A stretch of DNA of 64,000 nucleotides from the NCBI GenBank assembly GCA_031282735.1, contig JAITDE010000018.1:30057-94056 (forward strand). Direction: 5' to 3'. The notes beneath the pieces were generated by a model. That model saw only the letters and a program-made list of their open reading frames with translations, was not told the DNA's origin and did no database searches. The translations under genes were made by a program, and so were the position numbers. How positions within the stretch are numbered: position 1 is the stretch's first letter; each line of letters begins with the position of its first letter. The DNA is from Oscillospiraceae bacterium (lineage in GTDB: Bacteria > Bacillota > Clostridia > Oscillospirales > Acutalibacteraceae). This document shows, in pieces, positions 20,631-35,966 of the stretch.

Positions 20631-20706
20631 TGGCAGGGGCAGAAGGACTTGAACCCTCGACACGCGGTTTTGGAGACCGCTGCTCTACCAACTGAGCTAT
20701 ACCCCT
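20631..20706 (-). tRNA. tRNA-Trp (anticodon CCA)
   Basis: Hand-folded: AGGGGTA/TA/GCTC-AGTTGGTA-GAGC/A/GCGGT-CTCCAAA-ACCGC/GTGTC/GAGGG-TTCAAGT-CCTTC/TGCCCCT/G/CCA. 76 nt. Confidence 0.9.
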
Positions 20707-21251: not shown

Positions 21252-23660
21252 TCAAATTTGATAATCCGCAGCCCAGCCGTGTTGGGTGCGAGCGATGATG
21301 TCGTCTTGTAAATCGCGCGTCAACTGCGTGAAATACGCGGAATACCCGGCGATCCGCACAAGCAAATCGCGGTGATTTTCGGGATCGTTCTGCGCGTCGT
21401 ACAATGTTTTTTGCTCCAGCACGTTGAATTGTATATGCCAGAGCCGCAAATCACGCCATGACTCGATGAACGCCTCAAGTTTTTCGGTGCCGGATTCCCC
21501 CGCAACGCACGCGGGGCTAAGCTTGATGTTGAGCAGACGTGACGCGCGTTCGCGCCGCCCTTGGTTTTTGCTGCTGAAATTGGAAAGCAACACGGCCGTC
21601 GGACCGTTGATGTCCGCGCCCTGCGAGGCACTGCTGCCGTCGCTGAGCGGCGTGAACGCGCGGCGACCGTTCGGCGTTGCGCCGACGACCTTGCCGAACG
21701 GCACATGGCTGGTGAACGGCACCAAACGCAAATCCAAATGCACGCCCAATTCGTGCGAATACCGCGCCGTGTAATCGATCGCGTGGCGATCGAGGAGTTG
21801 CGCGATGGTGTCGGCGTAATCGTCGTCATTGCCGTATTTTGGCGCATGGATCAGCGCTTGCCGCAGGTCTTCAAAGCCGTCAAAATCGGCGCGCAGGGCG
21901 GCTTTTAGCTCGTCGAGCGAAAATAGCTTTTCTTCAAAAATCACTTTTTTGATTGCCGCCAAGCTGTCAACCACAGTTGCGTAGCCGATATATTCAAAAT
22001 AACCCAAATCAATGCCGCAGGGGATGTGCGGTTGGTGGAGATCCACCAAATTTTCGCGGCAGAGCTTGTGTAAAATACTGCCCAGCGGCGTTGCAAAATG
22101 CCGCGCCCGCAGACGGATGATGTGATATTGCTGTTGAAACGCGTGGCGCAGAAAATAGGTTTGTTGCTGCAGAAACGCCTGCAAAAAAGCGTCGTAATCA
22201 GCAAAATCGTCTCCCAAATCCAAACCGATTTTTTCATCGCCGTATTTCCGCATCGTCCCGCCGAAGAGCGTTATTTCGAGCGCGGCGGCAAAGTTGATGT
22301 AGGCGCATGGGGATGTGAACGTGTCGCGGTTCGGCATACGGCATTCCGAACAGCCCGATACGGCGTAATCAAGCGCTTCATCGTATTTTGCGCCTTTTGC
22401 GAGCAGAAGCGGGACCACCTCCTCGTCGTTGATGAGTTTCGGGAATCCGCCGCCGGCTTTGATTGTCTCCGCCACTTCGCGCAGGTAACGCTTCGGGCTG
22501 AGGGTGTGTATACGCGCCGCCAAATCGGGATAATGCAAGGGGAAATCCCGCTTGCTCTTGAGCAATAAATAGGTCAATTCGTTTGTCGCGTCGCGCCCCT
22601 CGGGTGTCTGCCCGCCGATGGTCACCGCCTCCCAATGCGCGTAGCCCTCGTTGAACGCGCCGCCCGTTTCGCTCAAATAAAGGTCGATAAACTGCGCCAT
22701 TTGTACCCATAGGCATTCAAACAACTCCTGCGCCTGCGCCGCCGTGATCGTGCCGTTTGCAATATCCCGCTCATAAAACGGTCGGAGGAATTGATCCATC
22801 CTGCCGTTGGAGATCACTGTTCCCGTCTTTTGTTCGATCCTTGAAAACATTGCAACAAACCATTGGCTTTGAACCGCTTCGCGGAAATCCCGCGCGGGAT
22901 AGGCGGGCACGTGCCTGCAAATTCGGGCAATTTGCCGCAGTTCCGTTTTTCGGATTGCGTCTTTTTCTTTGCCCGCAAGTTCCTCGGCGAGGTCGGCATA
23001 GCGGTTAGCCCACAAGATAATCGCGTCGCCCGCGAGCAGCAAGGCTTCGATGAACGGTCGTTTTTCGCTTTGATCCACAGGACTGTCCGGGTCAAGGGCG
23101 TTCAGCCGCGCAAAGAGTTCCGCCTGTATGCCTGTTAACCCTTTTTGCAGAACAATTTCGTAGTCGTGTACCCATTGGATGGACGAACGGAAAGAACTTG
23201 TTTCGTTGACGATAAAGCGCGAGCTGAGATCCGTGTTGTATGTCAGTTTTACGGTTTCGGGCGATAGGGCTTGCGCAAGGGCCTCATGGTAGGTTTTTCC
23301 CTGCCAATACGGCGCGATATCGCGCTGAATCGCAAGCGCGTCCGCTGGTGCGATATCAAAGGGCGAATAAGCGCGTTCGGGCAATTTTGCAACCGCGTCC
23401 CCCAGCACGTTGCCGTCCAATTCGGGATAGAGTATGCCGTAACGTCCCGGTTTTGCGCTTGCGCGCCCAACGATCAGCTGATCTTCATCAATTGAAATGC
23501 TTGCGTTTTGCGCATAACGCAAGAGCGCTTTCGCCCAGCGAAGAGGCAACGCCTGCCCCTCGGTTTGTTTGAACGATTGTGTAAAATACAAGCTCCGTTC
23601 AATGTCGATTGTCGGTTTTTGGTCTTGGATTTTTTGCAGGAGCACTTTTGCGCGGCTCAT
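21252..23660 (-). CDS. Glycyl radical enzyme, PFL2/1,2-eliminase-like (802 aa), substrate unknown
   Basis: C-terminal glycyl loop LVRIAGYSAYFTQLTRDLQDDIIARTQH. Thiyl loop VSGCSECRMPN (G-C-x-E, not the Cys-Cys of true PFL). Length is typical of HypD/IslA/GD-type enzymes. The ATG overlaps the upstream stop (ATGA). Confidence 0.92.
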   Translation of the reverse strand: MSRAKVLLQKIQDQKPTIDIERSLYFTQSFKQTEGQALPLRWAKALLRYAQNASISIDEDQLIVGRASAKPGRYGILYPELDGNVLGDAVAKLPERAYSPFDIAPADALAIQRDIAPYWQGKTYHEALAQALSPETVKLTYNTDLSSRFIVNETSSFRSSIQWVHDYEIVLQKGLTGIQAELFARLNALDPDSPVDQSEKRPFIEALLLAGDAIILWANRYADLAEELAGKEKDAIRKTELRQIARICRHVPAYPARDFREAVQSQWFVAMFSRIEQKTGTVISNGRMDQFLRPFYERDIANGTITAAQAQELFECLWVQMAQFIDLYLSETGGAFNEGYAHWEAVTIGGQTPEGRDATNELTYLLLKSKRDFPLHYPDLAARIHTLSPKRYLREVAETIKAGGGFPKLINDEEVVPLLLAKGAKYDEALDYAVSGCSECRMPNRDTFTSPCAYINFAAALEITLFGGTMRKYGDEKIGLDLGDDFADYDAFLQAFLQQQTYFLRHAFQQQYHIIRLRARHFATPLGSILHKLCRENLVDLHQPHIPCGIDLGYFEYIGYATVVDSLAAIKKVIFEEKLFSLDELKAALRADFDGFEDLRQALIHAPKYGNDDDYADTIAQLLDRHAIDYTARYSHELGVHLDLRLVPFTSHVPFGKVVGATPNGRRAFTPLSDGSSASQGADINGPTAVLLSNFSSKNQGRRERASRLLNIKLSPACVAGESGTEKLEAFIESWRDLRLWHIQFNVLEQKTLYDAQNDPENHRDLLVRIAGYSAYFTQLTRDLQDDIIARTQHGWAADYQI

Positions 23661-24961
23661 CCCTCCACCTCCTGATCAATAATGGAAAGCACGTCGTCCA
23701 GCACCTCAAACGCGCCGCGCAGTTCCGCTTCAGTGATAATCAGCGGCGGCGTGATGTTGATGTTGTTTTCGCGCCCGTATGTTGAAAATCCGCGTTCGCG
23801 CAGCAGTTTGAAGACGCGCGGCATGATTGTGTTCGGCTGACCGTAGGGCGCGATCGGCTCTTTTTTCGCGCGGTTTTTCACCAGTTCAACCGCCGAAAAC
23901 AAACCGATATAGCGCACGTCGCCGACGCAGGGATGTTTGCTTTTTTGTTCTTCGAGCAACGCGCCCAAGAGCTTGCCGCGCGCGGCGGTTTGCGCAAAAA
24001 TCGCGTTGTCTTCGTAATATTGCAGTGTCGCAAGCCCCGCCGCGCAGGCGAGCGCGTGCCCCGAATAGGTCAATCCAAATTGAAACACCCTGTCCTGATA
24101 AAAACGCGCGACCGCGTCCGAAACAATCACGCCGCCCAGCGGCACGTAACCGCAGGTGATCCCCTTCGCAAAACTGACAATATCCGGCTCAATATCCCAG
24201 TGCCGGAATCCGAACGCTTTGCCCGTGCGTCCAAATCCCGCCATGACTTCATCGCAGACAAGCAGAATGCCATATTTTTTTGTCAATGCGCGCAATCCTT
24301 GCAAATAGCCGTCGGGCGGAATGATAATCCCGTTTGCGCCCGTGACGCTCTCGACGAATACCGCCGCAATCTCTTTTGGGTTCTCGTGTTGTATCTGCTC
24401 CTCAAGCTCAGCAAGATAGCTCTCCGCCGTTCCGCCGCGCCGATAGACATAGGGATCAAAAAACTTGAGGAAGCCGTTCGCGGCGGGGTTTTCGAGCGCA
24501 AAACGGCGGGGATCGCCCGAGATGTTCCCGCTGCCCAAGGTCGAGCCGTGGTAACTGCGGTAACGCGAGAGGATTTTTGAACGCCCCGTGACGGTACGCG
24601 CCATGTTCAGCGCGGCCTCGTTGGCATCGCTTCCGCCGCAGGTGAAGAACACCTTCGCAAAGTGTCCGCCCGCCAATTGCACCAGCTTTTGCGCCAAGCG
24701 GCTTTTCGTCTCAAAGGCGTGTGCCGGCGCGACATAGGCGAAATCGTCCAACTGCGCTTTGATTGCCTCTTTGATTGGATCAATCGAAAAGCCTAGGTTC
24801 GAACAGCTCAGCTGGCATGACATGTCATAATATCGTTTGCCGTCATAATCATAAAAGTATATTCCCTCGCCGCGGGCGATTGCAAGCGGTTCTGTGTTCC
24901 CGGGTAACCATGGATGCTGGTTGTATTGCTGATCCAAAAGCAATATTTCTTCTTTTTTCAT
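23657..24961 (-). CDS. Class III (omega-) aminotransferase, amine:pyruvate type
   Basis: 434 aa from ATG 24961 (ATGA overlap with the MFS stop). Motifs: GGSDANEAA, DEVMAGFGRTG, and the PLP-Lys motif SFAKGITCGYVPLGG typical of taurine/beta-alanine:pyruvate-type omega-transaminases. Confidence 0.88.
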   Translation of the reverse strand: MKKEEILLLDQQYNQHPWLPGNTEPLAIARGEGIYFYDYDGKRYYDMSCQLSCSNLGFSIDPIKEAIKAQLDDFAYVAPAHAFETKSRLAQKLVQLAGGHFAKVFFTCGGSDANEAALNMARTVTGRSKILSRYRSYHGSTLGSGNISGDPRRFALENPAANGFLKFFDPYVYRRGGTAESYLAELEEQIQHENPKEIAAVFVESVTGANGIIIPPDGYLQGLRALTKKYGILLVCDEVMAGFGRTGKAFGFRHWDIEPDIVSFAKGITCGYVPLGGVIVSDAVARFYQDRVFQFGLTYSGHALACAAGLATLQYYEDNAIFAQTAARGKLLGALLEEQKSKHPCVGDVRYIGLFSAVELVKNRAKKEPIAPYGQPNTIMPRVFKLLRERGFSTYGRENNINITPPLIITEAELRGAFEVLDDVLSIIDQEVEG

Positions 24962-26172
24962 GCCGTCTTTTTCCTTTCTTTGATGAACAGGACGGATAGG
25001 AAGCTCAAACCGAGCGACGCGATGCAGTAGGGAAACAAAATCTTGAGCCCCCAGCGCGTATGGTCGCTCAAAAAGCCGCTGGCAATGGGTGTGATCACCA
25101 TTGCAAGGGTCATCACCATGTTGAATGCGGCCGTTGCGCCGCCAATCTTTTTGCCGTCCGATAGTTCCAGCAAAAACGGATAAAGGTTTGTCAGCGCGGC
25201 GGCGAAACCCGCGCCTGTGAAGAAGAAACACGCGAACATCGCCAATCCCAATCCTTTTTGCAAACTTGCCAGCGCAAACGCCGCCGCCATGATAGCAATC
25301 CCCAGCAACAGCAAGCGTTTTCGCGCAAATCGTTTTGCCAGCTTTGCCGATGGGATGGAAAACAGCACCGCCGCCAACAGCGTCAGCCCCTGCGGCAGGA
25401 CGAATTGCTGCTTGTTCAGACGCAGTATGTCCACGGCGTAATTCGAGAGACTCGACACCAGCCCGTTGTAGGCAACATAAAAGAAGAACACGCCGGCCAG
25501 CAACAATATGCGGTTATTCGTTTGCGCGGAGTCGGTGGTGTTTTGTTCCGCCGTGGTTGCCGCTTGCGCCGTCCACGCGCGCTCTTTGACCGTGAAAAGA
25601 AACGCCGCAATCAACGGCAGCATCAATGCCGCGCTTGCGTAAAAAATGGTATGATACCCATGCGGAGCGGCAAGCGAAATCAACACGATCCCAGCGACCG
25701 TGCAAAGGATACTCACGATATCGGTGATTGCCTGGGCGGTGCGGCGGTGTTCCAAGGGCGTAAAATCGGGCAATATTGCAAGCGACGCGGGGCGCGAAAA
25801 AGCGATGCTCGCAAGCGATCCGCCGAGTAAAATCAAAAACAGCCATTTCGATTGCAATCCGAGCGCAAGTCCCGTGCCGATCCAAAGCAATGCCGCCAGC
25901 ACACCGCCGGCAATTGCGAAGGGCGTGCGCTTCCCCCACCGGGATTTGCTTTTGTCGCTCAGCCAGCCGAACAGCGGCAGCAAAAACAGCCCGAGGATAT
26001 TATCCAGCGCCATGACGATGCCTTTGAGTGTGAAGTTCAGAGCCAAGCCGCCGTCCTCAGGTGAGGCGGTTAGAATCACGGGCAAGCCGTTGTCCAGCAC
26101 GGCGTTGAAAATCGATATCCACGCATAGGGCAGCGAGAGCAACAGTGTGCGTTTGACTGAAAATTTTTCCAT
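24958..26172 (-). CDS. MFS transporter, GPH/MFSD2-like
   Basis: 12-TM-like hydrophobicity. Loop 2-3 motif GWLSDKSKSRWGKRTPF is characteristic of glycoside-pentoside-hexuronide-type symporters. ATG at 26172 (MEKFSVKRTLL...). Confidence 0.82.
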   Translation of the reverse strand: MEKFSVKRTLLLSLPYAWISIFNAVLDNGLPVILTASPEDGGLALNFTLKGIVMALDNILGLFLLPLFGWLSDKSKSRWGKRTPFAIAGGVLAALLWIGTGLALGLQSKWLFLILLGGSLASIAFSRPASLAILPDFTPLEHRRTAQAITDIVSILCTVAGIVLISLAAPHGYHTIFYASAALMLPLIAAFLFTVKERAWTAQAATTAEQNTTDSAQTNNRILLLAGVFFFYVAYNGLVSSLSNYAVDILRLNKQQFVLPQGLTLLAAVLFSIPSAKLAKRFARKRLLLLGIAIMAAAFALASLQKGLGLAMFACFFFTGAGFAAALTNLYPFLLELSDGKKIGGATAAFNMVMTLAMVITPIASGFLSDHTRWGLKILFPYCIASLGLSFLSVLFIKERKKTA

Positions 26173-26222
26173 AAAGATATTTCTCTCCCAATCGAATGAA
26201 TGATTTTTCTTAAATCCAGCGT

Positions 26223-27827
26223 CTAGCGTCCGGCACCGTAAAGGTTCCCTTCTAAAATATATGGCGCAATTTTGAAAATGGCGCGTGACAATAAGCACAG
26301 CAAGGGATTGTTGTTCAAATAGGCAAACGAAAGTTTGCACAAATTTGCGGCGATGCTTTCAAACGTCGGCGTGCTGCGCGGTGTGATTTTGACGCGCTTG
26401 CCGCGAAATTGAATGAGAAACGTGTTGCTCACGCAAGTTTGAATGGGTCTAATGTTGATGTAAAGTGTGTTTTCGTCGCGCCATTGCGCCCATGCGTAGG
26501 TATCAAACCGAAAGCCCGCCAACGCAACGCTTCCAACGCGGTATTGACCGTCCAAACCCAATGGAATCGTGTTTTTCCAATCGCCCTCCCGCCATGAAAA
26601 CCGCGCTTCGCCGTCCGAAAAATCAAATTGCAGGTCGGTCATGTTGCCCGCGCGATCAATGCACATTTGGTTGACCGTCATGGGTAGCAAGCCCTGCGGA
26701 TAACCCGCAACATTGAGCAAAAGCTGTTTGCGCAGTTTGATTGTTTTGCCGTTCAGCCAAGCCTCCCGCTTTGGAACGCGCGGGGATATCGGCGGCACCG
26801 GAAAACTGAGCGATTGCTCCCGTTCGCGCAAAGCCGCCAATACCTGCGGATCTGACGGACGATCGCCGTCAAAAAAGCCGACGGGGAAGTGCGGATAGAT
26901 CAAATCGAACGGCTTTTGCTCATCGGCATCCGCGCCGAAATAGACAAATACGGCGTCATAATCGCGCATAACGAAACCGTGCTGGCAGAACATACCACGC
27001 GCCGCAAACGCGTTTTGCTGTTGGCACATCCAAAATTGATAGCCGTAGCCTTTGTTGCTGTCGGCTTTGAGATTGTCCGCGTTGCCGCTTTGCTTGCGCG
27101 TCGCTTCCCGCGCCCACCAAGCGGGAATGATCTGTTTGCCCTGCCATCTGCCGTCGTCGAGATAACACTGCATGAACTTCGCGCTGTCTTCCAGTTTCCA
27201 GATCACGCCCCAACCGCCGCCGGGGTTTCCGTCGTGATCGGTTTCGGTGAACGGCACATCAATGCCAAGCGGTTCAAACAGGCGCGGTGTGAGATATTCC
27301 CACATGGTCTGCCCCGTCAGCTTGCGAATGAGCACACTGAACAGATAGGCGCATTCGTTTGTATAGTGGAAGATATTCCCCGGCGGATCGCGCAGCGGAC
27401 TTTGCAGATAGTCTTTGATCCAATCGGGAGAGCTATTTTGATGAAAAACGTCGAACGCCAAACCTGAAGTCATTGTTATCACGTGCCGCAGGGTGATCAT
27501 ATCCCATAATGCCGCTTTTTTGGCCGGTCTGTATTCAGGAAAATATTTGCCCAATTTGTCGTCGAGGGAAAACAAGCCATCATCCGCGGCAAAGCCCGCC
27601 GCCGTGGCGGCAATACTTTTGCTGAACGAGTAGATGCTGTGCGGGATTTCGGCGGCATACGGTTTGCGGTATTGCTCAAACACGATCTTGCCGTGGCGCA
27701 GGATCATCAATCCGTGGTGTTCAAACCGGTTGCGGTCGAACGTATCGAGTAAATCCAAAATATGCCGCGCGGACACGCCGACTTCTTCCGGTGTTTGCGC
27801 GCGCGGCAAGCGGCTAGTGTTATTCAA
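26223..27827 (-). CDS. Beta-lactamase-fold serine hydrolase (esterase/amidase) with ~200-aa C-terminal extra domain
   Basis: SxxK (YSFSKSIAA) and YxN (HYTNE) motifs. The TTG start overlaps the upstream stop by 8 nt. Ends with a normal TAG stop. Confidence 0.82.
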   Translation of the reverse strand: MNNTSRLPRAQTPEEVGVSARHILDLLDTFDRNRFEHHGLMILRHGKIVFEQYRKPYAAEIPHSIYSFSKSIAATAAGFAADDGLFSLDDKLGKYFPEYRPAKKAALWDMITLRHVITMTSGLAFDVFHQNSSPDWIKDYLQSPLRDPPGNIFHYTNECAYLFSVLIRKLTGQTMWEYLTPRLFEPLGIDVPFTETDHDGNPGGGWGVIWKLEDSAKFMQCYLDDGRWQGKQIIPAWWAREATRKQSGNADNLKADSNKGYGYQFWMCQQQNAFAARGMFCQHGFVMRDYDAVFVYFGADADEQKPFDLIYPHFPVGFFDGDRPSDPQVLAALREREQSLSFPVPPISPRVPKREAWLNGKTIKLRKQLLLNVAGYPQGLLPMTVNQMCIDRAGNMTDLQFDFSDGEARFSWREGDWKNTIPLGLDGQYRVGSVALAGFRFDTYAWAQWRDENTLYINIRPIQTCVSNTFLIQFRGKRVKITPRSTPTFESIAANLCKLSFAYLNNNPLLCLLSRAIFKIAPYILEGNLYGAGR

Positions 27828-29160: not shown

Positions 29161-29220
29161 CACGATCGCTCCATTCTAAATCATTCATAATCATTCATAA
29201 ACCGTGCGCACGATGCGCGG

Positions 29221-29241
29221 GGAAATAATCATATTATTTCC
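29221..29241. promoter_or_regulatory. Perfect palindrome in the leader of the GRE operon (candidate operator or RNA hairpin)
   Basis: GGAAATAAT-CAT-ATTATTTCC, 7 nt downstream of the -10 box. Confidence 0.45.
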
Positions 29242-29247
29242 ATATGA

Positions 29248-29276
29248 ATTATATGATAACGCATTGCGCTTGTCAA
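29248..29276 (-). promoter_or_regulatory. Promoter of the 5-gene GRE operon
   Basis: Minus strand has TTGACA, a 17-nt spacer and TATAAT (full consensus). Confidence 0.65.
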
Positions 29277-29348
29277 GCGGTTCAACTGAAAAACATAGTA
29301 TACATATGGGATTGCTTTTTGTGTAAATTGCTATATTTTAAAAAACAG

Positions 29349-29377
29349 TTGACAGCACCGCGTGAACGCGCTATAAT
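29349..29377 (+). promoter_or_regulatory. Promoter of the ABC/MetY/sulfur-carrier operon
   Basis: TTGACA, a 17-nt spacer and TATAAT (full consensus), 20-30 nt upstream of the first start codon. Confidence 0.65.
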
Positions 29378-29406
29378 CATATTAAATCTGTAGGAATATG
29401 GTATTT

Positions 29407-30282
29407 ATGCAAAAGACGATTTCAAAGATGATTGCGTTGCTTTCGGCACTGTTGTTTTTGTCCGCCTGCGGCGCGTCGGGAGTTTCAACGCCCAAGACCG
29501 CACAAGCGCAAACGCAAGCGAAAACGCCGCGGCGCGTGGTTTCGCTCTATGCCTCCTACAGCGCGGCATGGCTGGCGGCGGGCGGATCCCTTGCGGGCGT
29601 TACGGACGACGCGGTCAACGAACGCCATTTGGATGTTGGTGGCGCCGCGTTGGTGGGCAGTCTCACGCGCCCGAGTTTGGAAAAAATCCTAGCCCTTGAG
29701 CCCGATTTAATTCTCGCGTCGCCCGATGTTCCTGGGCAATTGGCGTTACAAGCGCAATTTTTGAATCTGCAAATTGACGCGCGCTATTACGGTTGCGACA
29801 CGTTTGAGGCATACAAGGTGATGATGGAAGATTTTTTGTCGTCCACGGGACGCGACGATCTGCGCGAAAAGCTGATCGGCACACCCGAAGCGCAGATCAA
29901 ACAGGCAAAAGTCCTCGCGCAGGGCAAAACGCCGCGCAGCGTGTTGTTATTGCGGGCAAATTCCTCCGGCGTGCAAGTCAAAAGCGAGGGTACGGTCGCC
30001 GCAGAGATTTTGCGGGATTTGGGCGCGGTCAATATTGCGCAAAAAGAGCCGTCGCTGTTGCGGGAGCTATCGCTTGAAATCATCCTGCGGGAAAATCCGC
30101 AGTTCATTTTTGTTGTGCCGCAGGGTATCGACGATGCGCAAACGGCGATTGACGCGCTCGATCCGTCGTGGAGAAGCCTGACGGGGCAATTTATCGCACT
30201 GCCGAAAGATCTTTATCATTACAAGCCGAACGAACGCTGGGGGGAAGCCTATGCACAGCTTGCGGCAATCCTTTACGATTAA
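29407..30282 (+). CDS. ABC transporter substrate-binding lipoprotein, Fe-siderophore/heme/cobalamin (cluster A, PF01497-like) type
   Basis: Lipobox LLFLSAC and typical class III SBP layout. ATG 29407 has better RBS spacing than 29398. Confidence 0.8.
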   Translation: MQKTISKMIALLSALLFLSACGASGVSTPKTAQAQTQAKTPRRVVSLYASYSAAWLAAGGSLAGVTDDAVNERHLDVGGAALVGSLTRPSLEKILALEPDLILASPDVPGQLALQAQFLNLQIDARYYGCDTFEAYKVMMEDFLSSTGRDDLREKLIGTPEAQIKQAKVLAQGKTPRSVLLLRANSSGVQVKSEGTVAAEILRDLGAVNIAQKEPSLLRELSLEIILRENPQFIFVVPQGIDDAQTAIDALDPSWRSLTGQFIALPKDLYHYKPNERWGEAYAQLAAILYD

Positions 30283-31246
30283 GTTCGGCGCACTGGCGGC
30301 GGCGTTGATTGCCGCGATTTTTCTGGGATTTTCGTTGGGTGCGGTGCGTCTTCCCGCGTGGGACAGCCCCATTTTTTTGCAGGTGCGTTTGCCGCGCGTT
30401 TGCGCGTGTATTTTATGCGGGGCGGCGTTGGCGGCGGCGGGATTGCTTAGCCAAACATTGCTGGGCAATCCGCTTGCGAGCCCTGCTTTGTTGGGCGTGA
30501 ACGCGGGCGCGGGTTTGGCGATTGCGGGCGCGGGTGTGCTTGCGTTGGCGGCAAAACATCTGCCATTGGTTGCGTTCGCCGGCGCGGTGGTCGCCTCGTT
30601 GCTGATTTTTTGTTTGAGCCTGCGCACCAAACGCAGCGCGTTGCTGTTGGCCGGCGCGGCAATCTTGAGCATGTTTTCGGCGGCGATCGACGCGGTGCAC
30701 ACGCTTTTTCCCGCGGCGTTGCCAAGTTACAGCGCGTTCATGCTGGGCAACTTCAGTTCGGTCAGCTGGCGACGCATCACGCCGTCATATCTTTTTGTGG
30801 TCGCGGGGATCATAACGGCTTTTTTGCTTTGCGGGCAGTTGGATGTTTTCGCGCTTGGCGATGAAACGGCACGATCCTTGGGGCAACGCGTGCATGTTGT
30901 TCGCGCGGCGGCGTTGCTTGCGGGGGCGGTTCTTGCGGGCGCGGCGGTGAGCATCTGCGGTCTTTTGGGCTTTGTGGGGCTAATGAGCCCGCACTTGGCG
31001 CGGATGATTTTCCGCACGGCAAAGCACAGTGTTCTGTTGCCCGCGTGCTTGCTGTTGGGTGCGGCGCTTGTCACGTTTTGCGACACCATGAGCCGCACGT
31101 TGTTCGCGCCCTACGAACTCCCCGCAGGCATTGCGCTCAGTCTTATCGGCGGTCCGTTTTTTCTTTATTTGCTTCTCCACAAACGCCCTGCTTTTTCTTC
31201 AGAAAAATCTACTTTTTCTGAAGAAAAAGTAGCAAAAAGACTTTAG
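30251..31246 (+). CDS. FecCD-family ABC permease; last ~20 codons and the stop are supplied by a repeat element
   Basis: LRLPRV..., GAALAAAG and GGPFFLYLLL are FecCD/BtuC hallmarks. The tail PAFSSEKSTFSEEKVAKRL-TAG lies in hairpin repeat copy A. Confidence 0.88.
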   Translation: MHSLRQSFTIKFGALAAALIAAIFLGFSLGAVRLPAWDSPIFLQVRLPRVCACILCGAALAAAGLLSQTLLGNPLASPALLGVNAGAGLAIAGAGVLALAAKHLPLVAFAGAVVASLLIFCLSLRTKRSALLLAGAAILSMFSAAIDAVHTLFPAALPSYSAFMLGNFSSVSWRRITPSYLFVVAGIITAFLLCGQLDVFALGDETARSLGQRVHVVRAAALLAGAVLAGAAVSICGLLGFVGLMSPHLARMIFRTAKHSVLLPACLLLGAALVTFCDTMSRTLFAPYELPAGIALSLIGGPFFLYLLLHKRPAFSSEKSTFSEEKVAKRL

Positions 31247-31256
31247 CCGCTTCGCG
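31197..31256 (+). repeat. Hairpin repeat family, copy A
   Basis: CTTCAGAAAAATCTACTTTTTCTGAAGAAAAAGTAGCAAAAAGACTTTAGCCGCTTCGCG. Core 11-bp stem CTACTTTTTCT/AGAAAAAGTAG. Confidence 0.85.
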
Positions 31257-31299
31257 TATCCGGATTCATCCGGCAAAAATTTTCTTTGGAGGAAACATC

Positions 31300-32013
31300 G
31301 TGCTCTCGTTTTGTCATGTTGATTTTGCATATGATAAACCCGTTCTGCACGACGTTTCGTTTGCGTTGCGCACCGGAATGACATGCGTACTTTCGCCCAA
31401 CGCGGGCGGCAAGAGCACACTGCTCAAACTCGCGGCCGGATTGCTGAAACCGCAAAGCGGTCAAATCCTGCCGCAATACAAGTCTCCGAAAATCCGTGCG
31501 CAAAACGTTGCCTTGCTCCCGCAGTGGAATCGCGTGCCGGAACTGACGGTTTATGAACTCGCGGCCCACGGACGCTACCCGCATCTTTCGGCGGGGCACG
31601 TGCTCCGCGCGCGCGACAAGGAGATCATCGGCGCGGCGTTGGAACAAACGGGCGCAATCGCGTTCCTCCACAGGAAGCTGGGGGAAATTTCAGGCGGACA
31701 GCGGCAAAAAGCCGCGCTCGCCATGGCGCTGGCGCAGGAAACCCCCTTGCTGTTGCTCGATGAACCGACGACATACCTTGATATCAAAGTGCAGTTGGAA
31801 TTGATGGAACTGTTGCAAAGCTTGCCGAACAAAAAGATATTGATGGCAATCCACGATATTCCCCTCGCGCTGCGGTTTTGCGATTATGCCATGGTGTTGC
31901 GTGACGGGCGGTTGATATTTGACGGCGCGTGTGCGGATCTTCCCGCAAGCGGCGCGTTGGAATCGGCATTCGGTGTCACAAATTTGGAAAGGAGCTCGGT
32001 GCATGCGTTTTAA
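31300..32013 (+). CDS. ABC transporter ATP-binding protein (FecE/BtuD type)
   Basis: Walker A SPNAGGKSTLL, signature ISGGQRQ, Walker B LLLLDEP. GTG start behind GGAGG. Confidence 0.9.
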   Translation: MLSFCHVDFAYDKPVLHDVSFALRTGMTCVLSPNAGGKSTLLKLAAGLLKPQSGQILPQYKSPKIRAQNVALLPQWNRVPELTVYELAAHGRYPHLSAGHVLRARDKEIIGAALEQTGAIAFLHRKLGEISGGQRQKAALAMALAQETPLLLLDEPTTYLDIKVQLELMELLQSLPNKKILMAIHDIPLALRFCDYAMVLRDGRLIFDGACADLPASGALESAFGVTNLERSSVHAF

Positions 32014-33160
32014 TACACGGCTTTTGCATGGCGACGCGCAAACGAATCCCTATGGAGCGACACTGCCGCCGATTGTGCAAAGTTCCGCCTTTGCGCACGA
32101 GAGCGCGGAACAGCTCGAAAAAATATTTGAGAACAAAGCGCCCGGATTTGCCTATTCGCGCATCGGTAATCCAACCGTCGCGGCTTTTGAAAAACGGATG
32201 TCCGTGCTTGAGGGCGGCATTGACGCGATCGCCTGTGCCAGTGGGATGGCGGCGGTCAGCATGGCACTGTTGGCGTTCCTGCGAAGCGGCGACGAAATCA
32301 TAGCCGGCAGTGGATTGTTCGGCGGCACACTGGATCTGTTGGGCAATTTTGCGGCGTTTGGTATCAAGACTACGTTTCTTGAAAGCGTCACGGCCGAAGC
32401 TGTTCACTCGGCGGTCACGCCGAACACCCGCGTTATTTTTGCGGAATACATCGGCAATCCCAAATTGGATGTAACGAATATCCGCGCCGTTGCGCAAGCC
32501 GCCGACGCGCACGGCATTGCGTTGGTCGTCGACAGCACGACGGCGACGCCCGCGCTGATTAGACCTTTGGAGGAGGGTGCGCATGTGGTTGTGCACAGCA
32601 GTTCAAAATACATCAACGGCGGCGGCAGCGGCATTTCGGGCGTGATCATCCCGGGTGCGCGTGTTCCGGCGACGCCCGCGCTGGAAGCGTTTCAAAAATA
32701 CGGCAAATTTGCCTATGTGCAGCGGATACGACAAGATATTTGGCGCAACTTCGGTCCTTGCCTCGCGCCCGAAAACGCCTATCTCAACTGTTTGGGGCTT
32801 GAAACGCTTGGATTGCGTATGGAGCGACTTTGCGCCAACGCGGCGGAACTCGCGGCGTATCTGGAACAGCAGGGTTTGGAGGTGCGGTATCCCGCGATCG
32901 GTGCGATTCTAACCGTGCGGGCGGGGACGAAAGCGCGGGCGTTCGCGCTCATCAACGCGCTGCGCTATGCGAAAATCGCGTCGAACATCGGCGATGTGCG
33001 CACCTTGGTGATCCATCCGTCCAGCACGATTTATCTCCACAGCAGCGAAGCGCAAAAACGCGCGGCGGGCGTATATGACGACCTCATCCGCGTGAGCGTC
33101 GGCATTGAAGACATTGCGGATCTCAAAGAGGATTGGAGGCGAGCGATTGATGCCACCTGA
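32003..33160 (+). CDS. metY: O-acetylhomoserine sulfhydrylase-family PLP enzyme (MetY/CysD type)
   Basis: FNTRLLHGD..., YSRIGNPT and the PLP-Lys region HSSSKYINGGG. The ATG overlaps the ATPase gene end by 11 nt. Confidence 0.88.
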   Translation: MRFNTRLLHGDAQTNPYGATLPPIVQSSAFAHESAEQLEKIFENKAPGFAYSRIGNPTVAAFEKRMSVLEGGIDAIACASGMAAVSMALLAFLRSGDEIIAGSGLFGGTLDLLGNFAAFGIKTTFLESVTAEAVHSAVTPNTRVIFAEYIGNPKLDVTNIRAVAQAADAHGIALVVDSTTATPALIRPLEEGAHVVVHSSSKYINGGGSGISGVIIPGARVPATPALEAFQKYGKFAYVQRIRQDIWRNFGPCLAPENAYLNCLGLETLGLRMERLCANAAELAAYLEQQGLEVRYPAIGAILTVRAGTKARAFALINALRYAKIASNIGDVRTLVIHPSSTIYLHSSEAQKRAAGVYDDLIRVSVGIEDIADLKEDWRRAIDAT

Positions 33161-34010
33161 TTACAAGGCACTCAAAAACGGCGGATTCATGCGCCAAGTG
33201 CAAAAAAATTGTTTCAGTTTGCGGCTCAAGGTCGTGGGCGGAAATTTAACGGCGGAACAGCTTTGCGTGATTGCCGAAATCAGCCGCAAATACGGGCGAG
33301 GCACGGTTCACCTAACTTCACGGCAGGGCGTGGAAATTCCGTTTATCAAGTTGGATGATGTGGAACGTGTTCGGACGGAATTGGCGGAGGGCGGTGTGGA
33401 TACAGGTGTTTGCGGTCCGCGTGTGCGCACGGTGACGGCTTGCCAAGGGAGGGCGATTTGCCCTGGCGGATGCATTGAGACATATCCGCTGGCGGAAGCG
33501 ATCAGCGAACGCTATTTTGGGCGCGCATTGCCGCATAAATTCAAGTTCGGCGTCGTCGGATGCGTGAACAACTGCCTCAAAGCGGAGGAAAACGACATCG
33601 GTATCAAAGGCGGTTATGCCGTATCTTGGCTACCCGAAAAATGCACGCTGTGCGGCGTTTGTGTGCCCGCTTGCCGCGAAAACGCGATTGCAATCGACGG
33701 CGGCGGTCTGTCAATGGACGATACGCGATGCAATCACTGCGGGCGATGCGTGAAGAGTTGTCCATTTGACGCTTGGAGCGGAGAACCTGTATATTTGCTC
33801 AGTTTCGGCGGCACGTTCGGCAATTTGATTGCAAAGGGCGAAGCGATTTTGCCCATCCTGCACACCGAAGAAGAGATTTTCCGCGCGAGCGACGCCGCCT
33901 TGGCTTTTTTTGATCAATATGGAAAACCCGGCGAACGTTTTCGTGTCTCGATTGAACGCGAAGGTTGGGCAAGCTTTCAAAAATATATAACGGAGGCAGT
34001 GTATGGCTGA
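33150..34010 (+). CDS. Small sulfite/nitrite-reductase-like protein with inserted 2x[4Fe-4S] ferredoxin domain
   Basis: Siroheme-[4Fe-4S] Cys pattern (CGPRVRTVTAC...CPGGC..., GCVNNC) plus CTLCGVCVPAC and CNHCGRCVKSC. 286 aa. Confidence 0.75.
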   Translation: MPPDYKALKNGGFMRQVQKNCFSLRLKVVGGNLTAEQLCVIAEISRKYGRGTVHLTSRQGVEIPFIKLDDVERVRTELAEGGVDTGVCGPRVRTVTACQGRAICPGGCIETYPLAEAISERYFGRALPHKFKFGVVGCVNNCLKAEENDIGIKGGYAVSWLPEKCTLCGVCVPACRENAIAIDGGGLSMDDTRCNHCGRCVKSCPFDAWSGEPVYLLSFGGTFGNLIAKGEAILPILHTEEEIFRASDAALAFFDQYGKPGERFRVSIEREGWASFQKYITEAVYG

Positions 34011-34233
34011 ATTTGTGGACATCACGGATGTCGTTTGTCCCGTGACATTCGTCAAAGTTAAAGTTGCGCTGGAGGAGCTTGACGATGGGCAGGAATTGCA
34101 AATCAGGCTCAACGGCGGCGAACCCGTGCAAAACGTGCCGCGCAGCATCAAGGAAGAGGGGCATCAGGTGCTCAAGCTGACGCAAAATGAGGACGGCACT
34201 TACAACCTGCTTGTGCGGAAGGAGGGTGATTAA
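34003..34233 (+). CDS. TusA/SirA-family sulfurtransferase
   Basis: 76 aa with the conserved Cys-Pro motif (DVVCPVTFVKVKVAL). Confidence 0.8.
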   Translation: MAEFVDITDVVCPVTFVKVKVALEELDDGQELQIRLNGGEPVQNVPRSIKEEGHQVLKLTQNEDGTYNLLVRKEGD

Positions 34234-34234
34234 T

Positions 34235-34531
34235 ATGCCGGCAATCACGGCTCAAACGCCCGTTCTGCTTGATTTTTACAGCGAGAGCTGCGCCCCGTGC
34301 AGGCGGCTCAAACCCGTATTGGCGGCATTGGCGCAAATGTTTGAGGGGCGCGTGGAAATCCAAAAAATCAACGCGGGCAATCATCCCGAACTGGCGGAGG
34401 CATACGACGTGCAAACCCTGCCGACCCTGCTTTTGCTCCATTGCGGCAAAGAACTCTGGCGCGGCACGGGATTCATCACGCAGGAAATACTTGACGCGAA
34501 GCTCAATCAAATATTGGAGGGAATGCAATGA
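34235..34531 (+). CDS. Thioredoxin-family protein
   Basis: LLDFYSESCAPCRRLKP (CxxC), ~98 aa from ATG 34235. Confidence 0.85.
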   Translation: MPAITAQTPVLLDFYSESCAPCRRLKPVLAALAQMFEGRVEIQKINAGNHPELAEAYDVQTLPTLLLLHCGKELWRGTGFITQEILDAKLNQILEGMQ

Positions 34532-34752
34532 AAATTGTGGTAACAGGCATCGAAAAACAAGCGGCGGAGGGACTGACAATCGCCCAATTGATTGCGGATG
34601 AAAATGTGGAAAGCCCCGCGTATGTGACCGTTTCGCTCAACGATACGTTCGTTGAACAGGGTGCGTTCCCGCACACCGTGCTCCATGAGGGAGACAGTGT
34701 GGAATTTTTATATTTCATGGGCGGAGGGCGACCGTATGCCATTCACCAATGA
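34528..34752 (+). CDS. ThiS/MoaD-like sulfur-carrier protein with C-terminal extension after GGG
   Basis: 74 aa beta-grasp-size protein ending ...VEFLYFMGGG-RPYAIHQ. The ATG overlaps the trx stop (ATGA). Confidence 0.75.
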   Translation: MKIVVTGIEKQAAEGLTIAQLIADENVESPAYVTVSLNDTFVEQGAFPHTVLHEGDSVEFLYFMGGGRPYAIHQ

Positions 34753-35545
34753 ACAGCTCGAACGGTATTCGCGGCATATTTTGCTCAGCGAAGTGGGCGT
34801 AAAAGGGCAACGCAAACTGATGAACGCCAAAGTGCTGATCATCGGCGCGGGCGGTTTGGGCGCACCCGCGGCACTCTACTTGGCGGCGGCAGGCGTTGGA
34901 ACAATCGGCATTGCTGACGCGGACGAAGTGGATCTTTCAAATCTGCAAAGGCAGGTGATCCACACGACAGCCGATATTGGCAAAGCCAAAGCGCTTTCGT
35001 CCAAAGAGACTATGCTGGCGATCAATCCGGAAATCACCGTCAACACGTATTTCATGTTTGCGGACGCTTCAAATATTTTGGATTTGATTGCCGATTATGA
35101 TTTTATCATAGACGGCACGGATAATTTTCCCGCAAAATTTTTGATTAACGACGCGTGTGTGCTGGCGGGCAAGCCGTTTTCGCACGCGGGGATACTGCGT
35201 TTCGGCGGGCAATTGACGACCTATGTGCCGGGGCAAGGAGCGTGCTACCGTTGTATATTCAAAGAACCACCGCCCAAGGACGCCGTTCCCACCTGCAAAC
35301 AAGCGGGCGTGATCGGCGCGATGGGCGGTGTGATTGGATCGCTCCAAGCAATGGAGGCGGTCAAATATGTGATCGGCAAAGGCGATTTGCTCACGGGGCG
35401 GTTACTGACATATGACGCTTTGAAGATGGATTTTCGCACAATCCGCGTGCCGCGCCGTGCAAATTGTGCGGTTTGCGGGGAACATCCGACCATCACAAAA
35501 CCCGTCGATTACGAACAAACGGAGTGTGATTTGCGTGCGGATTGA
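34736..35545 (+). CDS. ThiF/MoeB/HesA-family adenylyltransferase (E1-like)
   Basis: YSRHILLSEVGVKGQ, the GAGGLGAPAALYLAAAG nucleotide loop and CxxC pairs (CYRC, CAVC). Confidence 0.9.
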   Translation: MPFTNEQLERYSRHILLSEVGVKGQRKLMNAKVLIIGAGGLGAPAALYLAAAGVGTIGIADADEVDLSNLQRQVIHTTADIGKAKALSSKETMLAINPEITVNTYFMFADASNILDLIADYDFIIDGTDNFPAKFLINDACVLAGKPFSHAGILRFGGQLTTYVPGQGACYRCIFKEPPPKDAVPTCKQAGVIGAMGGVIGSLQAMEAVKYVIGKGDLLTGRLLTYDALKMDFRTIRVPRRANCAVCGEHPTITKPVDYEQTECDLRAD

Positions 35546-35966
35546 ATTGCGGCGGATCGATTTTGACGCCATGGTGGCATACGCGCAAGCCCAGTTGCCG
35601 AATGAGGCTTGCGGATTGATTGGTGGGATAATCTGCGGAAAAACAAAGTACGTCAAAAAAATCTATCAATTGACGAACTTAGATCACAGCCCTGAACATT
35701 TTTCCCTTGATCCCAAAGAACAGTTGATCGCGCTCAAAGACGCAAGGAGCGGCGGCTTGCAATTGATCGGCAACTGGCACAGTCACCCATCCACGCCCGC
35801 GCGCCCGTCGGAGGAGGACATTCGGCTGGCGTTTGATCCAACGGCAAGCTACCTCATTTTGTCGCTGGCGGCGGAAAAACCCACGCTGAAAAGCTTTTGC
35901 ATCACCGGAGGAATCGCGGCGGCGGAAGATTTGGTGATTGACAATGAATATCGGACGTTAGGATAG
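35535..35966 (+). CDS. JAMM/MPN+ metalloprotease (Mec+/HcyD/QbsD type)
   Basis: EACG...GNWHSHPSTPARPSEEDI matches the E...HxHx7Sx2D JAMM motif. Proposed GTG start at 35535. Confidence 0.85.
   Translation: MRIELRRIDFDAMVAYAQAQLPNEACGLIGGIICGKTKYVKKIYQLTNLDHSPEHFSLDPKEQLIALKDARSGGLQLIGNWHSHPSTPARPSEEDIRLAFDPTASYLILSLAAEKPTLKSFCITGGIAAAEDLVIDNEYRTLG

Follow-up and report, generated by a model that had tools for sequence, protein, structure and literature searches.

A probable sulfonate-sulfur scavenging island joining a glycyl radical enzyme operon to a sulfite reductase and thiocarboxylate operon in an Oscillospiraceae bacterium

The locus considered here occupies positions 21252-35966 of a 64,000-nucleotide stretch of DNA from an Oscillospiraceae bacterium, hereafter the window, in which two operons can be found back to back. 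The left operon, on the minus strand, comprises five tightly packed genes, with a 4-nt overlap at the junction between the aminotransferase and major facilitator superfamily (MFS) genes, while the right operon, on the plus strand, comprises ten genes overlapping at most junctions. The features are the following.

21252..23660, minus, glycyl radical enzyme (GRE) of IslA/IseG (isethionate sulfite-lyase) type, 802 aa (PDB matches, residue conservation)
23657..24961, minus, class III aminotransferase of taurine:2-oxoglutarate/pyruvate type, 434 aa (PF00202; start mapped)
24958..26172, minus, MFS transporter, about 404 aa from MEKFSV... (MFS_1, 107 bits; MFS_2, 66 bits)
26223..27827, minus, beta-lactamase-fold serine hydrolase, about 528-534 aa (PF00144)
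27820..29160, minus, sphingosine-1-phosphate (S1P) lyase-like PLP enzyme, 446 aa, encoded at the head of the left operon (PDB scores, key residues)
29221..29241, unstranded, perfect palindrome GGAAATAAT-cat-ATTATTTCC, a candidate operator as read from the sequence
29248..29276, minus, left-operon promoter, perfect sigma-70 consensus
29349..29377, plus, right-operon promoter, perfect sigma-70 consensus
29407..30282, plus, lipoprotein substrate-binding protein of a type II (FecB/BtuF/IsdE-like) ABC importer (PF01497; weak IsdE and BtuF matches)
30251..31246, plus, FecCD-family permease (PF01032, 252 bits)
31300..32013, plus, ABC ATPase (PF00005)
32003..33160, plus, MetY-type O-acetylhomoserine sulfhydrylase (PF01053, 308 bits; start mapped)
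33150..34010, plus, small sulfite reductase (Sir), about 286 aa (NIR_SIR_ferr, NIR_SIR and Fer4)
34003..34233, plus, TusA-like sulfur-transfer protein, 76 aa (from sequence)
34235..34531, plus, thioredoxin with a CAPC motif (PF00085)
34528..34752, plus, ThiS/HcyS-like sulfur carrier (TIGR01683, 53 bits)
34736..35545, plus, ThiF/MoeB-type E1-like adenylyltransferase (PF00899, 281 bits; SAMP-activating E1, 325 bits)
35526..35966 (start approximate), plus, HcyD/Mec+-like JAB/MPN metalloprotease (PF14464; desampylase model, 67 bits)

Both promoters match TTGACA-17-TATAAT at 12 of 12 positions and their -35 boxes are 72 bp apart, which bears out the first-pass annotation of divergent operons with consensus promoters about 70 bp apart. 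Six perfect sigma-70 sites can be found across the window, where shuffled sequence predicts 0.01, and the 235-bp spacer between the operons holds two of the six. The -35 and -10 blocks are also kept in the equivalent spacer of a relative with an identical layout (L025). The palindrome sits just 3' of the minus-strand -10 box and occurs once in the 1.79-Mb genome; its counterparts upstream of the gene in relatives are weak only. A search of the locus for a riboswitch or T-box found none.

The GRE, a radical enzyme of an oxygen-sensitive kind, scores 1142 bits against IseG (PDB 5ymr), 1120 against IslA (7kq3) and 1030 against HpsG (6lon). All nine catalytic and sulfonate-binding residues of IslA are retained: R158, Q162 and R645 make up the cationic sulfonate triad (IslA R189, Q193 and R678), and W343, C437, E439, V647, F649 and G772 correspond to IslA W374, C468, E470, V680, F682 and G805. 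Sulfonate specificity, earlier regarded as unproven for this enzyme, is supported by the pocket itself, and from these resemblances the enzyme probably releases sulfite and acetaldehyde from isethionate. A C3 sulfonate (DHPS, as for HpsG) or another hydroxysulfonate is a very unlikely substrate in its place. The NCBIfam model NF048011, '(2S)-3-sulfopropanediol dehydratase', does give 1358 bits with a cut-off of 1000, and similarity to HpsG is only slightly lower than to the isethionate enzymes; however, the same model gives 1464 bits on the human-gut GRE of a canonical taurine cluster (GRE-activase-aminotransferase-alcohol dehydrogenase). It therefore does not discriminate IslA from HpsG, and by that route leaves room for C3 sulfonates. 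The motifs FRSSIQW and VPF agree with IslA/IseG and not with HpsG, which has YRSALQW and VPI, and the gene adjoining that of the GRE encodes a taurine-type aminotransferase.

This aminotransferase scores 489 bits against taurine:2-oxoglutarate aminotransferase (PDB 6jix), the runner-up reaching 267 bits, and would convert taurine to sulfoacetaldehyde. The MFS transporter, for which a PDB search gave no relative at E<1e-3, is kept within the operon in eight relatives and is presumed to import the sulfonate substrate. The hydrolase has the SxxK (SFSK) and YxN (YTN) motifs, whereas a signal peptide, looked for in the sequence, is absent. Its C-terminus forms an eight-stranded lipocalin-like barrel in the AF2 model (pLDDT 90.8), the closest folds to which are the Lsa45 esterase, the NylB amidase, family VIII esterases and Pab87; the top NCBIfam match is BAS-suc (202 bits, under its cut-off). 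We propose that this cytoplasmic enzyme is an amidase or esterase freeing the amine of a conjugate.

The first gene of the left operon had implicitly been taken for a decarboxylase. Its product is far nearer to S1P lyases, with 418 bits against StSPL (PDB 3mad) and 365 against human SPL, as opposed to 115 against MfnA, and a plain decarboxylase identity was set aside. As in the S1P lyases StSPL, Dpl1p and human SGPL1, the fold, the PLP lysine (K242) and the substrate-entry tyrosine (Y413, equivalent to Y482) are present. Ten of the 14 published key residues are identical, K248 (equivalent to K317), Y38 and N59 being among those retained, and two more are conservative; the changed positions are H129 to N62, A103 to L36, T169 to S99 and S353 to T284. 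Unlike S1P lyases, the enzyme has no N-terminal membrane or flexible segment, differs at the head-group site (H129 to N, A103 to L) and lies in a sulfonate, not a sphingolipid, context. The product logic would nevertheless be shared, namely an aminoethyl unit carrying an anionic head group. Two ways in which it could yield taurine are proposed: it may split a 2-amino-3-hydroxy-alkanesulfonate such as capnine in a retro-aldol reaction, or it may decarboxylate cysteate.

The first of these entry routes, which is a real but tentative possibility, has a bacterial sulfonolipid as the substrate: the hydrolase would strip the N-acyl chain, as a ceramidase analogue, and the S1P-lyase-like enzyme would then cleave the C2-C3 bond of capnine (2-amino-3-hydroxy-alkane-1-sulfonate) to give taurine and a fatty aldehyde, in parallel with S1P lyase, which forms phosphoethanolamine from sphingosine-1-phosphate. 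Membership of the family argues for it, the retro-aldol architecture being kept down to K248, as does Y413 on the C-terminal extension, a tyrosine that same-fold decarboxylases do not have. The changes at H129 and A103 concern positions that vary in bona fide S1P lyases too (the Burkholderia enzyme has Q and T) and would fit a smaller mono-anionic sulfonate. Moreover, the predicted product is the exact substrate of the next enzyme of the operon, and roles are given both to the transporter and to the acyl-hydrolase, a cytoplasmic protein that is strictly conserved and bears a lipocalin-like barrel. A literature search found no catabolic pathway for capnine or sulfonolipids. Against this route, the motifs TWSLVY and NxLNP extend across a very broad subfamily, with members in Actinomycetota, Myxococcota, Bdellovibrionota and Asgard archaea, and are therefore not specific to the sulfonate-operon context. 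The nearest relatives away from a GRE, in Ruminiclostridium cellobioparum and others, have as neighbors SsuABC/TauABC-type transporters, whose usual cargo is small soluble sulfonates. In addition, no resemblance of the MFS protein to MFSD2A-type lipid transporters could be detected in the PDB, and the operon lacks genes for lipid handling, for instance one for an aldehyde dehydrogenase.

The alternative, possible but rather doubtful, is that the enzyme is an acidic amino-acid decarboxylase converting L-cysteate (or cysteine sulfinate) to taurine (or hypotaurine), in which case the hydrolase would be a parallel feeder freeing taurine or cysteate from amide conjugates, for example N-acyl-taurines, or would stand outside the pathway. 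S1P lyases share the group II decarboxylase fold, with the leaving group in the carboxylate position, and among NCBIfam models that of the Tyr/Asp decarboxylase MfnA scores highest (238 bits, cut-off 299). A small soluble substrate would also fit a subfamily that is widespread in organisms without sphingolipids or sulfonolipids and that has SsuABC-type neighbors, and cysteate is described in the literature as a common sulfonate. Yet no proven decarboxylase exceeds 115 bits where proven S1P lyases reach 418, the S1P-lyase-specific equivalents of K317 and Y482 are kept, the strictly conserved hydrolase is left without a necessary role, and a literature search found no characterized cysteate decarboxylase in this family.

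Regarding the right operon, MetY matches PDB 8sf5, 7kb0 and 3ri6, the last being Wolinella MetY (247 bits). Sir carries an inserted 2x[4Fe-4S] ferredoxin domain together with C-x5-C and C-x3-C motifs, and its closest structure is the sulfite-reductase half of the F420-dependent sulfite reductase Fsr (7np8, 127 bits). The siroheme-[4Fe-4S] core and the inserted domain are shared with the C-terminal half of Fsr and with small assimilatory-type Sirs, but unlike Fsr the enzyme is free-standing and has no F420H2 dehydrogenase half. Genomes encoding the small Sir appear unable to make tetrapyrroles. The TusA-like protein is 75-81% identical to PF01206-bearing neighbors of Sir on other contigs. The carrier ends in FLYFMGGG followed by a seven-residue cap, RPYAIHQ; the 11 homologues examined all end in MGGG plus one to seven further residues, and one of them is fused to ThiF. 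By analogy, the JAB protease would remove this cap.

In the genus, all six genomes with the GRE operon (the window genome and five genus-mates) also have Sir, whereas neither was found in the 10 other genomes searched, these counts coming from one genus and not being independent observations. The two operons lie side by side and diverge in five cases and three gene orders (the window, L185 and G010; G005; G009); in G006 they lie on separate contigs and in G013 they are not adjacent. MetY is absent from the clusters of G005, G006 and G009, and homocysteine therefore need not be the sole sink. Outside the genus, L102 carries a MetY-Sir-TusA-Trx-ThiS-ThiF-JAB block after the genes for an IslA-like GRE, the activase of this GRE and an SsuABC-like transporter, and parts of the block lie beside IslA-like GREs in L129, L135, L136, L140, L147, L150, L163 and L169, so that full or partial blocks are found on nine unrelated metagenome contigs. 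L163 has the whole set of GRE, activase, alcohol dehydrogenase, aminotransferase, hydrolase, SPL-like enzyme, Sir, TusA, ThiF, ThiS, JAB and FecCD.

No activase or alcohol dehydrogenase is encoded in the left operon, as had been remarked before, and a search for an activase remnant 3' of the GRE gene found none. These apparent weak points are largely resolved by the gene content of relatives, in which an activase lies directly 3' of the GRE and an Fe-dependent alcohol dehydrogenase (Fe-ADH) lies beside or inside the Sir operon, as its head gene in G009 or between the ABC genes and Sir in G006. In the window genome (completeness 98.6%), the best match to the cognate activases of relatives, at 36-38% identity, is an orphan TIGR02494-type activase (G000:C18:5999-6886, 340 bits), and the Fe-ADH of relatives lacks a close orthologue, its top match (contig C49) being 35% identical. 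With neither a close Fe-ADH orthologue nor a cognate activase, the pathway here may therefore be incomplete or may use recruited enzymes.

No ATP sulfurylase or PAPS_reduct-family gene was found in this genome and the right-operon Sir is its single NIR_SIR protein, so no sulfite source other than the GRE is evident; MetA is present and could supply acyl-homoserine. The earlier proposal that the left operon liberates sulfite which the right operon reduces and assimilates is thus supported by co-occurrence, adjacency, the GRE pocket and the absence of sulfate activation. It is unlikely that the left operon serves instead for nitrogen, carbon or energy metabolism, with taurine donating amino groups and acetaldehyde available for fermentation, while Sir detoxifies sulfite and sulfur assimilation is incidental. 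Fsr, the closest structural relative of Sir, detoxifies sulfite in methanogens, the sample comes from a termite gut, an environment that is nitrogen-poor, and the modules of three relatives have no MetY. For detoxification, however, Sir alone would suffice; the capped carrier, E1, JAB protease, TusA and thioredoxin would be superfluous, as would MetY in at least six loci, and the genome has no other route from inorganic sources to reduced sulfur.

In the scavenging pathway, the MFS transporter would bring in a sulfonated amine conjugate, the amine of which would be freed by the cytoplasmic hydrolase and turned into taurine by the S1P-lyase-like enzyme. The Toa-like aminotransferase would then give sulfoacetaldehyde, an Fe-ADH (encoded in the cluster of relatives, not in that of this genome) would reduce it to isethionate, and the GRE would split isethionate into acetaldehyde and sulfite. 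In the right half, Sir would reduce sulfite to sulfide; the JAB protease would cut the cap from the carrier and ThiF would adenylate the carrier, after which sulfur handed on by TusA and thioredoxin would make it a protein thiocarboxylate; and MetY would form homocysteine from O-acylhomoserine and this thiocarboxylate, or from O-acylhomoserine and free sulfide. We infer each of these steps, as well as the entry substrate and the activase and reductase serving this genome.

Both halves have known counterparts. The GRE has the same catalytic and sulfonate-binding set as in IslA/IslB of Bilophila wadsworthia and IseG/IseH of Desulfovibrio vulgaris, and the taurine aminotransferase, together with the Fe-ADH and activase of relatives, is common to the isethionate sulfite-lyase pathway, for whose assimilatory use by fermenters a taurine sulfur-assimilation cluster of Clostridium butyricum is reportedly a precedent. 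In contrast to such systems, the island adds two strictly conserved upstream genes, for the S1P-lyase-like enzyme and the hydrolase, has an MFS protein instead of TRAP or ABC uptake, has neither activase nor reductase in the operon of this genome, and is coupled physically and phyletically to a Sir/thiocarboxylate module. The right half resembles the HcyS-HcyD-HcyF-MetY-Sir system of Wolinella succinogenes, said to perform protein-thiocarboxylate-dependent homocysteine/methionine synthesis, in clustering a ThiS-like carrier with residues past Gly-Gly, a JAB protease, a ThiF-type E1, MetY and a sulfite reductase; CysO/MoeZ/Mec+ of Mycobacterium tuberculosis is a related thiocarboxylate system. 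It differs from the Wolinella system in that sulfite would come from a sulfonate-cleaving GRE and not from sulfate activation, Sir is small and Fsr-C-like with its inserted ferredoxin domain, the operon also encodes TusA and thioredoxin and opens with the genes of a FecCD-type importer, and the carrier caps are one to seven residues long, with one carrier-E1 fusion.

Gene identities, catalytic residues, co-occurrence, synteny and the absence of sulfate activation form the basis for reading the two operons as, probably, one sulfur-scavenging island that carries sulfonate sulfur to homocysteine with taurine as the central intermediate. While the sulfonate-cleaving and thiocarboxylate halves are each known separately, their union, along with two extra entry enzymes, would be new.

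ORF listing and Pfam/NCBIfam scans bear out the layout of two divergent operons that the first-pass annotation had described. The left operon encodes a sphingosine-1-phosphate lyase (S1PL)-like PLP enzyme, a beta-lactamase-fold hydrolase, an MFS transporter, a class III aminotransferase and a glycyl radical enzyme (GRE), while the right operon encodes an importer, MetY, the small sulfite reductase Sir, TusA, a thioredoxin, a ThiS-like carrier, ThiF and JAB. The features concerned are as follows.

20634-20706: tRNA gene, 545 bp downstream of the GRE gene
29160 down to 21252, minus strand: left operon, five close-packed genes
21252-23660, minus strand: GRE gene
27820-29160, minus strand: S1PL-like gene
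29221-29241: perfect palindrome with 9-bp arms, immediately 3' of the minus-strand -10 box
29248-29276, minus strand: promoter of the left operon
29349-29377, plus strand: promoter of the right operon
29407-35966, plus strand: right operon, ten genes
29407-32013, plus strand: FecB/FecCD/ATPase importer genes

Both promoters are perfect TTGACA-17-TATAAT sites, as had been claimed, and only six such sites occur in the whole 64-kb window, where shuffled sequence would give 0.01; the promoter blocks are kept in a relative of identical layout (L025). Short inverted repeats rich in GC, AGCGCAATGCGTT and CGCGTGAACGCG, stand out from the AT-rich surroundings in the spacers of both promoters, and these repeats show no conservation in L025. 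The palindrome is present as a single copy in the genome and is echoed only weakly in relatives, so that it was rejected as a regulon marker. The island shows no evident regulator gene, and an Rfam scan of the window returned one tmRNA and two tRNAs and nothing else, hence no riboswitch or T-box. The window takes up positions 30057-94056 of contig C71. The genome itself (1.79 Mb, 98.6% complete, 108 contigs) has as closest relatives MAGs named 'Oscillospiraceae bacterium' from termite gut, and a termite-gut metagenome DNA run is probably the source of the window DNA.

The two operons travel together within the genus. The GRE can be found in five of 15 other species, each time within the complete five-gene operon, and Sir was found in exactly these five, the other ten yielding none. 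Adjacency of the GRE operon and the Sir unit is also kept despite rearrangement: in the window, in L185 and in genome G010, an SBP-permease-ATPase-MetY-Sir series is divergent from the GRE operon, in G005 Sir itself is directly divergent from it, and in G009 an alcohol dehydrogenase (ADH) gene followed by Sir takes this position. In G006, the GRE operon and the Sir unit are on different contigs, yet the Sir operon includes a gene for the Fe-ADH that the GRE route would require, flanked by the ABC ATPase and Sir genes (L187, contig C10, 8840-9829); its product is about 58-60% identical to the Fe-ADHs of G013 and G009 whose genes adjoin the S1PL-like one. G013 has its ADH and S1PL-like genes in divergent orientation, with an activase gene after the GRE. 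A class-wide sample of 400 genomes, searched at E<=1e-250, yielded the window's own GRE only; because two candidates were scored per genome, this sample speaks for the rarity of the GRE and is useless for co-occurrence.

Outside the genus, 82 loci harbor IslA-like GREs (62-75% identity), with an adjacent activase gene in 79 and a taurine aminotransferase (>=50% identity) in about 16. The Sir-TusA-(Trx)-ThiS-ThiF-JAB block, with or without MetY, lies within 10 kb in at least nine of the 82, a count that is a floor because many contigs are short. One locus (L163) unites GRE, activase, ADH, aminotransferase, hydrolase, S1PL-like enzyme, Sir, TusA, ThiF, ThiS, JAB and FecCD. On a Bacillota MAG contig (L102, 3866-13290), an SsuABC-like transporter is placed between two sulfonate-type GREs that have one activase apiece; immediately downstream come LacI-MetY-Sir-TusA-Trx-ThiS-ThiF-JAB, a thioredoxin-reductase-like gene and an SDR gene.

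The GRE (802 aa) matches the solved structures of IseG, IslA and HpsG with 1142, 1120 and 1030 bits, respectively. Alignments read against the published residue roles of IslA pair R158, Q162, W343, C437 and E439 with IslA R189, Q193, W374, C468 and E470, and R645, V647, F649 and G772 with R678, V680, F682 and G805; all nine are invariant among the 12 homologues compared. The glycyl radical motif RIAGY with G772 and the thiyl loop C437-S-E439 are present. The pocket thus keeps the sulfonate-binding residues for which it was to be inspected, namely the anchoring triad R158/Q162/R645 together with V647, F649 and W343. A pocket of the HpsG (DHPS sulfolyase) type is not indicated, as the GRE carries FRSSIQW and VPF, like IslA and IseG, in place of the YRSALQW and VPI of HpsG, and lacks the HpsG Ile at the position of IslA F682. 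On these alignments the enzyme is of the IslA/IseG type, a predicted isethionate sulfite-lyase. The NCBIfam model NF048011, named '(2S)-3-sulfopropanediol dehydratase', gives 1358 bits on the window GRE; this name does not discriminate, because the model scores higher (1464 bits) on a human-gut GRE (L112:10001-12388) in a canonical GRE-activase-aminotransferase-ADH taurine cluster. Automatic annotation therefore probably mislabels isethionate sulfite-lyases through NF048011, which scores above cut-off on IslA/IseG-type enzymes.

Regarding the aminotransferase, a full-length match of 489 bits to taurine:2-oxoglutarate aminotransferase (PDB 6jix), against 267 bits for the next PDB match, places it specifically close to that enzyme. 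In the right operon, Sir (286 aa) has NIR_SIR_ferr and NIR_SIR domains with an inserted ferredoxin domain, and the cysteines for siroheme and [4Fe-4S] (C-x5-C...C-x3-C) are kept in TACQGRAIC and GCVNNC; its closest structure is the reductase half of Fsr. MetY gives 247-259 bits against solved O-acetylhomoserine sulfhydrylases, including the Wolinella enzyme, and the thioredoxin motif is CAPC; genes for TusA, the carrier, ThiF and JAB complete the set. The carrier ends in MGGG-RPYAIHQ, with the JAB gene adjacent. As in the HcyS/HcyD system, a ThiS-fold Gly-Gly is followed by extra residues that would need a JAB protease, and, as in the HcyS/HcyF/HcyD/MetY route, a ThiF-type E1, MetY and sulfite reductase are clustered. 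All 11 homologous carriers examined end in FLYFMGGG plus 1-7 further residues, and in L020 (G005:C6, about 251-1255) carrier and ThiF form a single in-frame fusion (…FLYFMGGG-A-FTDEELERYSRHILL…), from which the carrier would have to be released by proteolysis. Since every examined carrier has residues after MGGG, uncapping by JAB appears to be a general feature. MetY is proposed to use the carrier thiocarboxylate as sulfur donor.

Neither ATP sulfurylase nor a PAPS_reduct-family protein was found in the 98.6% complete genome, MetA is present, and the only NIR_SIR protein is the Sir of the right operon, which is hence left with no evident sulfite source besides sulfonate cleavage. Co-occurrence, adjacency, the GRE pocket and this gene complement jointly support the earlier interpretation of the island as a sulfonate-to-homocysteine salvage module. 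The importer belongs, by family assignment, to the heme/B12/siderophore-type ABC transporters, and FecCD-type genes recur beside the Sir module (window, G010 (L018), L185, G006 (L187), L135, L136, L163 and L169). No porphobilinogen deaminase was found in any of the six genomes that carry Sir within the genus. Together, these two observations suggest that the importer may possibly salvage siroheme, another tetrapyrrole or iron for Sir.

The lack of an activase gene, named as a weak point in the first-pass annotation, holds for the window, where neither the gene nor a remnant 3' of the GRE was detected. In L017/L022, L025, L028 and L185, the activase gene is directly 3' of the GRE; in the window, this position is taken by the tRNA gene, and the 545-bp stretch up to it contains no ORF and no activase similarity. 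Both the cognate activase and the Fe-ADH of the relatives are absent from the genome, which has four GREs and only three activase-like genes. The only candidates for the two roles are a TIGR02494-type orphan activase with a ferredoxin insert (G000:C18:5999-6886) and an Fe-ADH on contig C49, 35% identical to that of the relatives. Within C18:5250-6886, the orphan activase gene adjoins a second small radical-SAM gene and htpG, distant from all four GRE genes.

The first two left-operon genes would provide the entry chemistry. The product of 27820-29160, previously called a decarboxylase, turns out to be an S1PL homologue, with 418 bits against StSPL (PDB 3mad) and 365 against human SPL, versus 115 against MfnA. 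Ten of 14 published S1PL key residues are identical, including the PLP Lys, K317, Y105, N126 and the substrate-entry Tyr. Residues K242, D205, H132, C207, G98 and H241 (PLP Lys/Asp, His/Cys sandwich, phosphate cup) are identical to S1PL, and T169->S99 and S353->T284 are conservative changes. Among head-group residues, Y38, N59 and K248 are kept, and H129->N62 and A103->L36 are changed, positions at which Burkholderia S1PL also varies (Q and T). The substrate-entry Tyr of the C-terminal extension is Y413 in ALYGM, and 78 of 81 members of the subfamily have Tyr there. Judged by its genomic context, the enzyme would more likely act on a sulfonate head group than on a phosphate one. The hydrolase is cytoplasmic with SxxK and YxN motifs; its predicted model (pLDDT 90.8) combines a beta-lactamase/PBP domain with a lipocalin-like barrel, the closest structures being esterases and amidases, and paralogues of up to 48% identity occur outside sulfonate contexts. 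A 'MFSD2-like' reading of the MFS transporter is unsupported because this protein has no PDB sequence relative.

The S1PL-like subfamily, with TWSLVY and NxLNP motifs, can be found in Bacillota, Actinomycetota, Myxococcota, Bdellovibrionota and Asgard archaea; as these motifs are subfamily-wide, their reading as an operon-specific head-group adaptation was dropped. Members with all catalytic residues are widespread in Actinomycetota (L043-L049), often near genes for a DUF819 membrane protein and a sulfite-oxidase-family molybdoenzyme, and in Promethearchaeota/Asgard archaea (L060-L099). A quick ML tree groups the Bacillota members into a single clade (SH-aLRT 99), with a sulfur-related context for all but one of its 23 members: 11 in a GRE operon, two immediately before Sir (L030 and L163, the latter also among the 11) and ten among SsuABC-type transporters, radical-SAM proteins, PNPOx-like proteins and GNAT. 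In Ruminiclostridium cellobioparum (L031/L033, 3900-21200), a 66% identical homologue is accompanied by MetK, three SsuABC/TauABC-like transporters, three radical-SAM proteins of about 400 aa, two PNPOx-like proteins and GNAT, a candidate anaerobic sulfonate-utilisation island recurring in about ten Bacillota genomes. The soluble-sulfonate transporters around the sister clade favor cysteate decarboxylation, by which the S1PL-like enzyme would yield taurine; the literature searched contained no bacterial cysteate decarboxylase from this family. Retro-aldol cleavage of capnine-type bases (2-amino-3-hydroxy-alkane-1-sulfonates) would equally yield taurine. This route is favored by the S1PL catalytic residues that are kept and by the presence of a transporter and an obligatory acyl-hydrolase. 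On the capnine route, the hydrolase would act as a 'sulfono-ceramidase' deacylating N-acyl-capnine, and the sulfonate-adapted S1PL homologue would split capnine into taurine and a fatty aldehyde. In the literature searched, a single paper treats capnine along with taurine and lyase, without describing a capnine lyase, and none ties capnine to S1P lyase or GREs to thiocarboxylate-dependent homocysteine synthesis. The published D-cysteinolate pathway runs on unrelated enzymes. We propose tentatively, at less than even confidence, that the first two left-operon genes constitute the first catabolic route for bacterial sulfonolipids; as a second element, the FecCD importer may salvage siroheme or another tetrapyrrole for Sir.

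The island is a combination of two known systems, with testable entry chemistry. Work on anaerobic sulfonate cleavage by GREs has mostly viewed it as a source of respiratory sulfite and H2S; here, it would be coupled to an assimilatory carrier-protein route in bacteria without sulfate activation, the GRE and thiocarboxylate modules being exchanged as a unit across Bacillota. On the practical side, the '(2S)-3-sulfopropanediol dehydratase' name reaches IslA-type enzymes. Cofactor salvage is suggested by the pairing of a siroheme enzyme with a heme/B12-type importer in bacteria that seem to be tetrapyrrole auxotrophs. To our knowledge, no pathway for sulfonolipid or capnine degradation is known, and the entry enzymes are a concrete, testable candidate for one; they also suggest what physiological role S1P-lyase homologues may have in the large subfamily found in prokaryotes and Asgard archaea. 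The island illustrates how fermenters of the termite hindgut, a sulfur-poor niche, may come by their sulfur; if the capnine route is true, Oscillospiraceae of wood-feeding termites would draw it from the membranes of neighbouring Bacteroidota.
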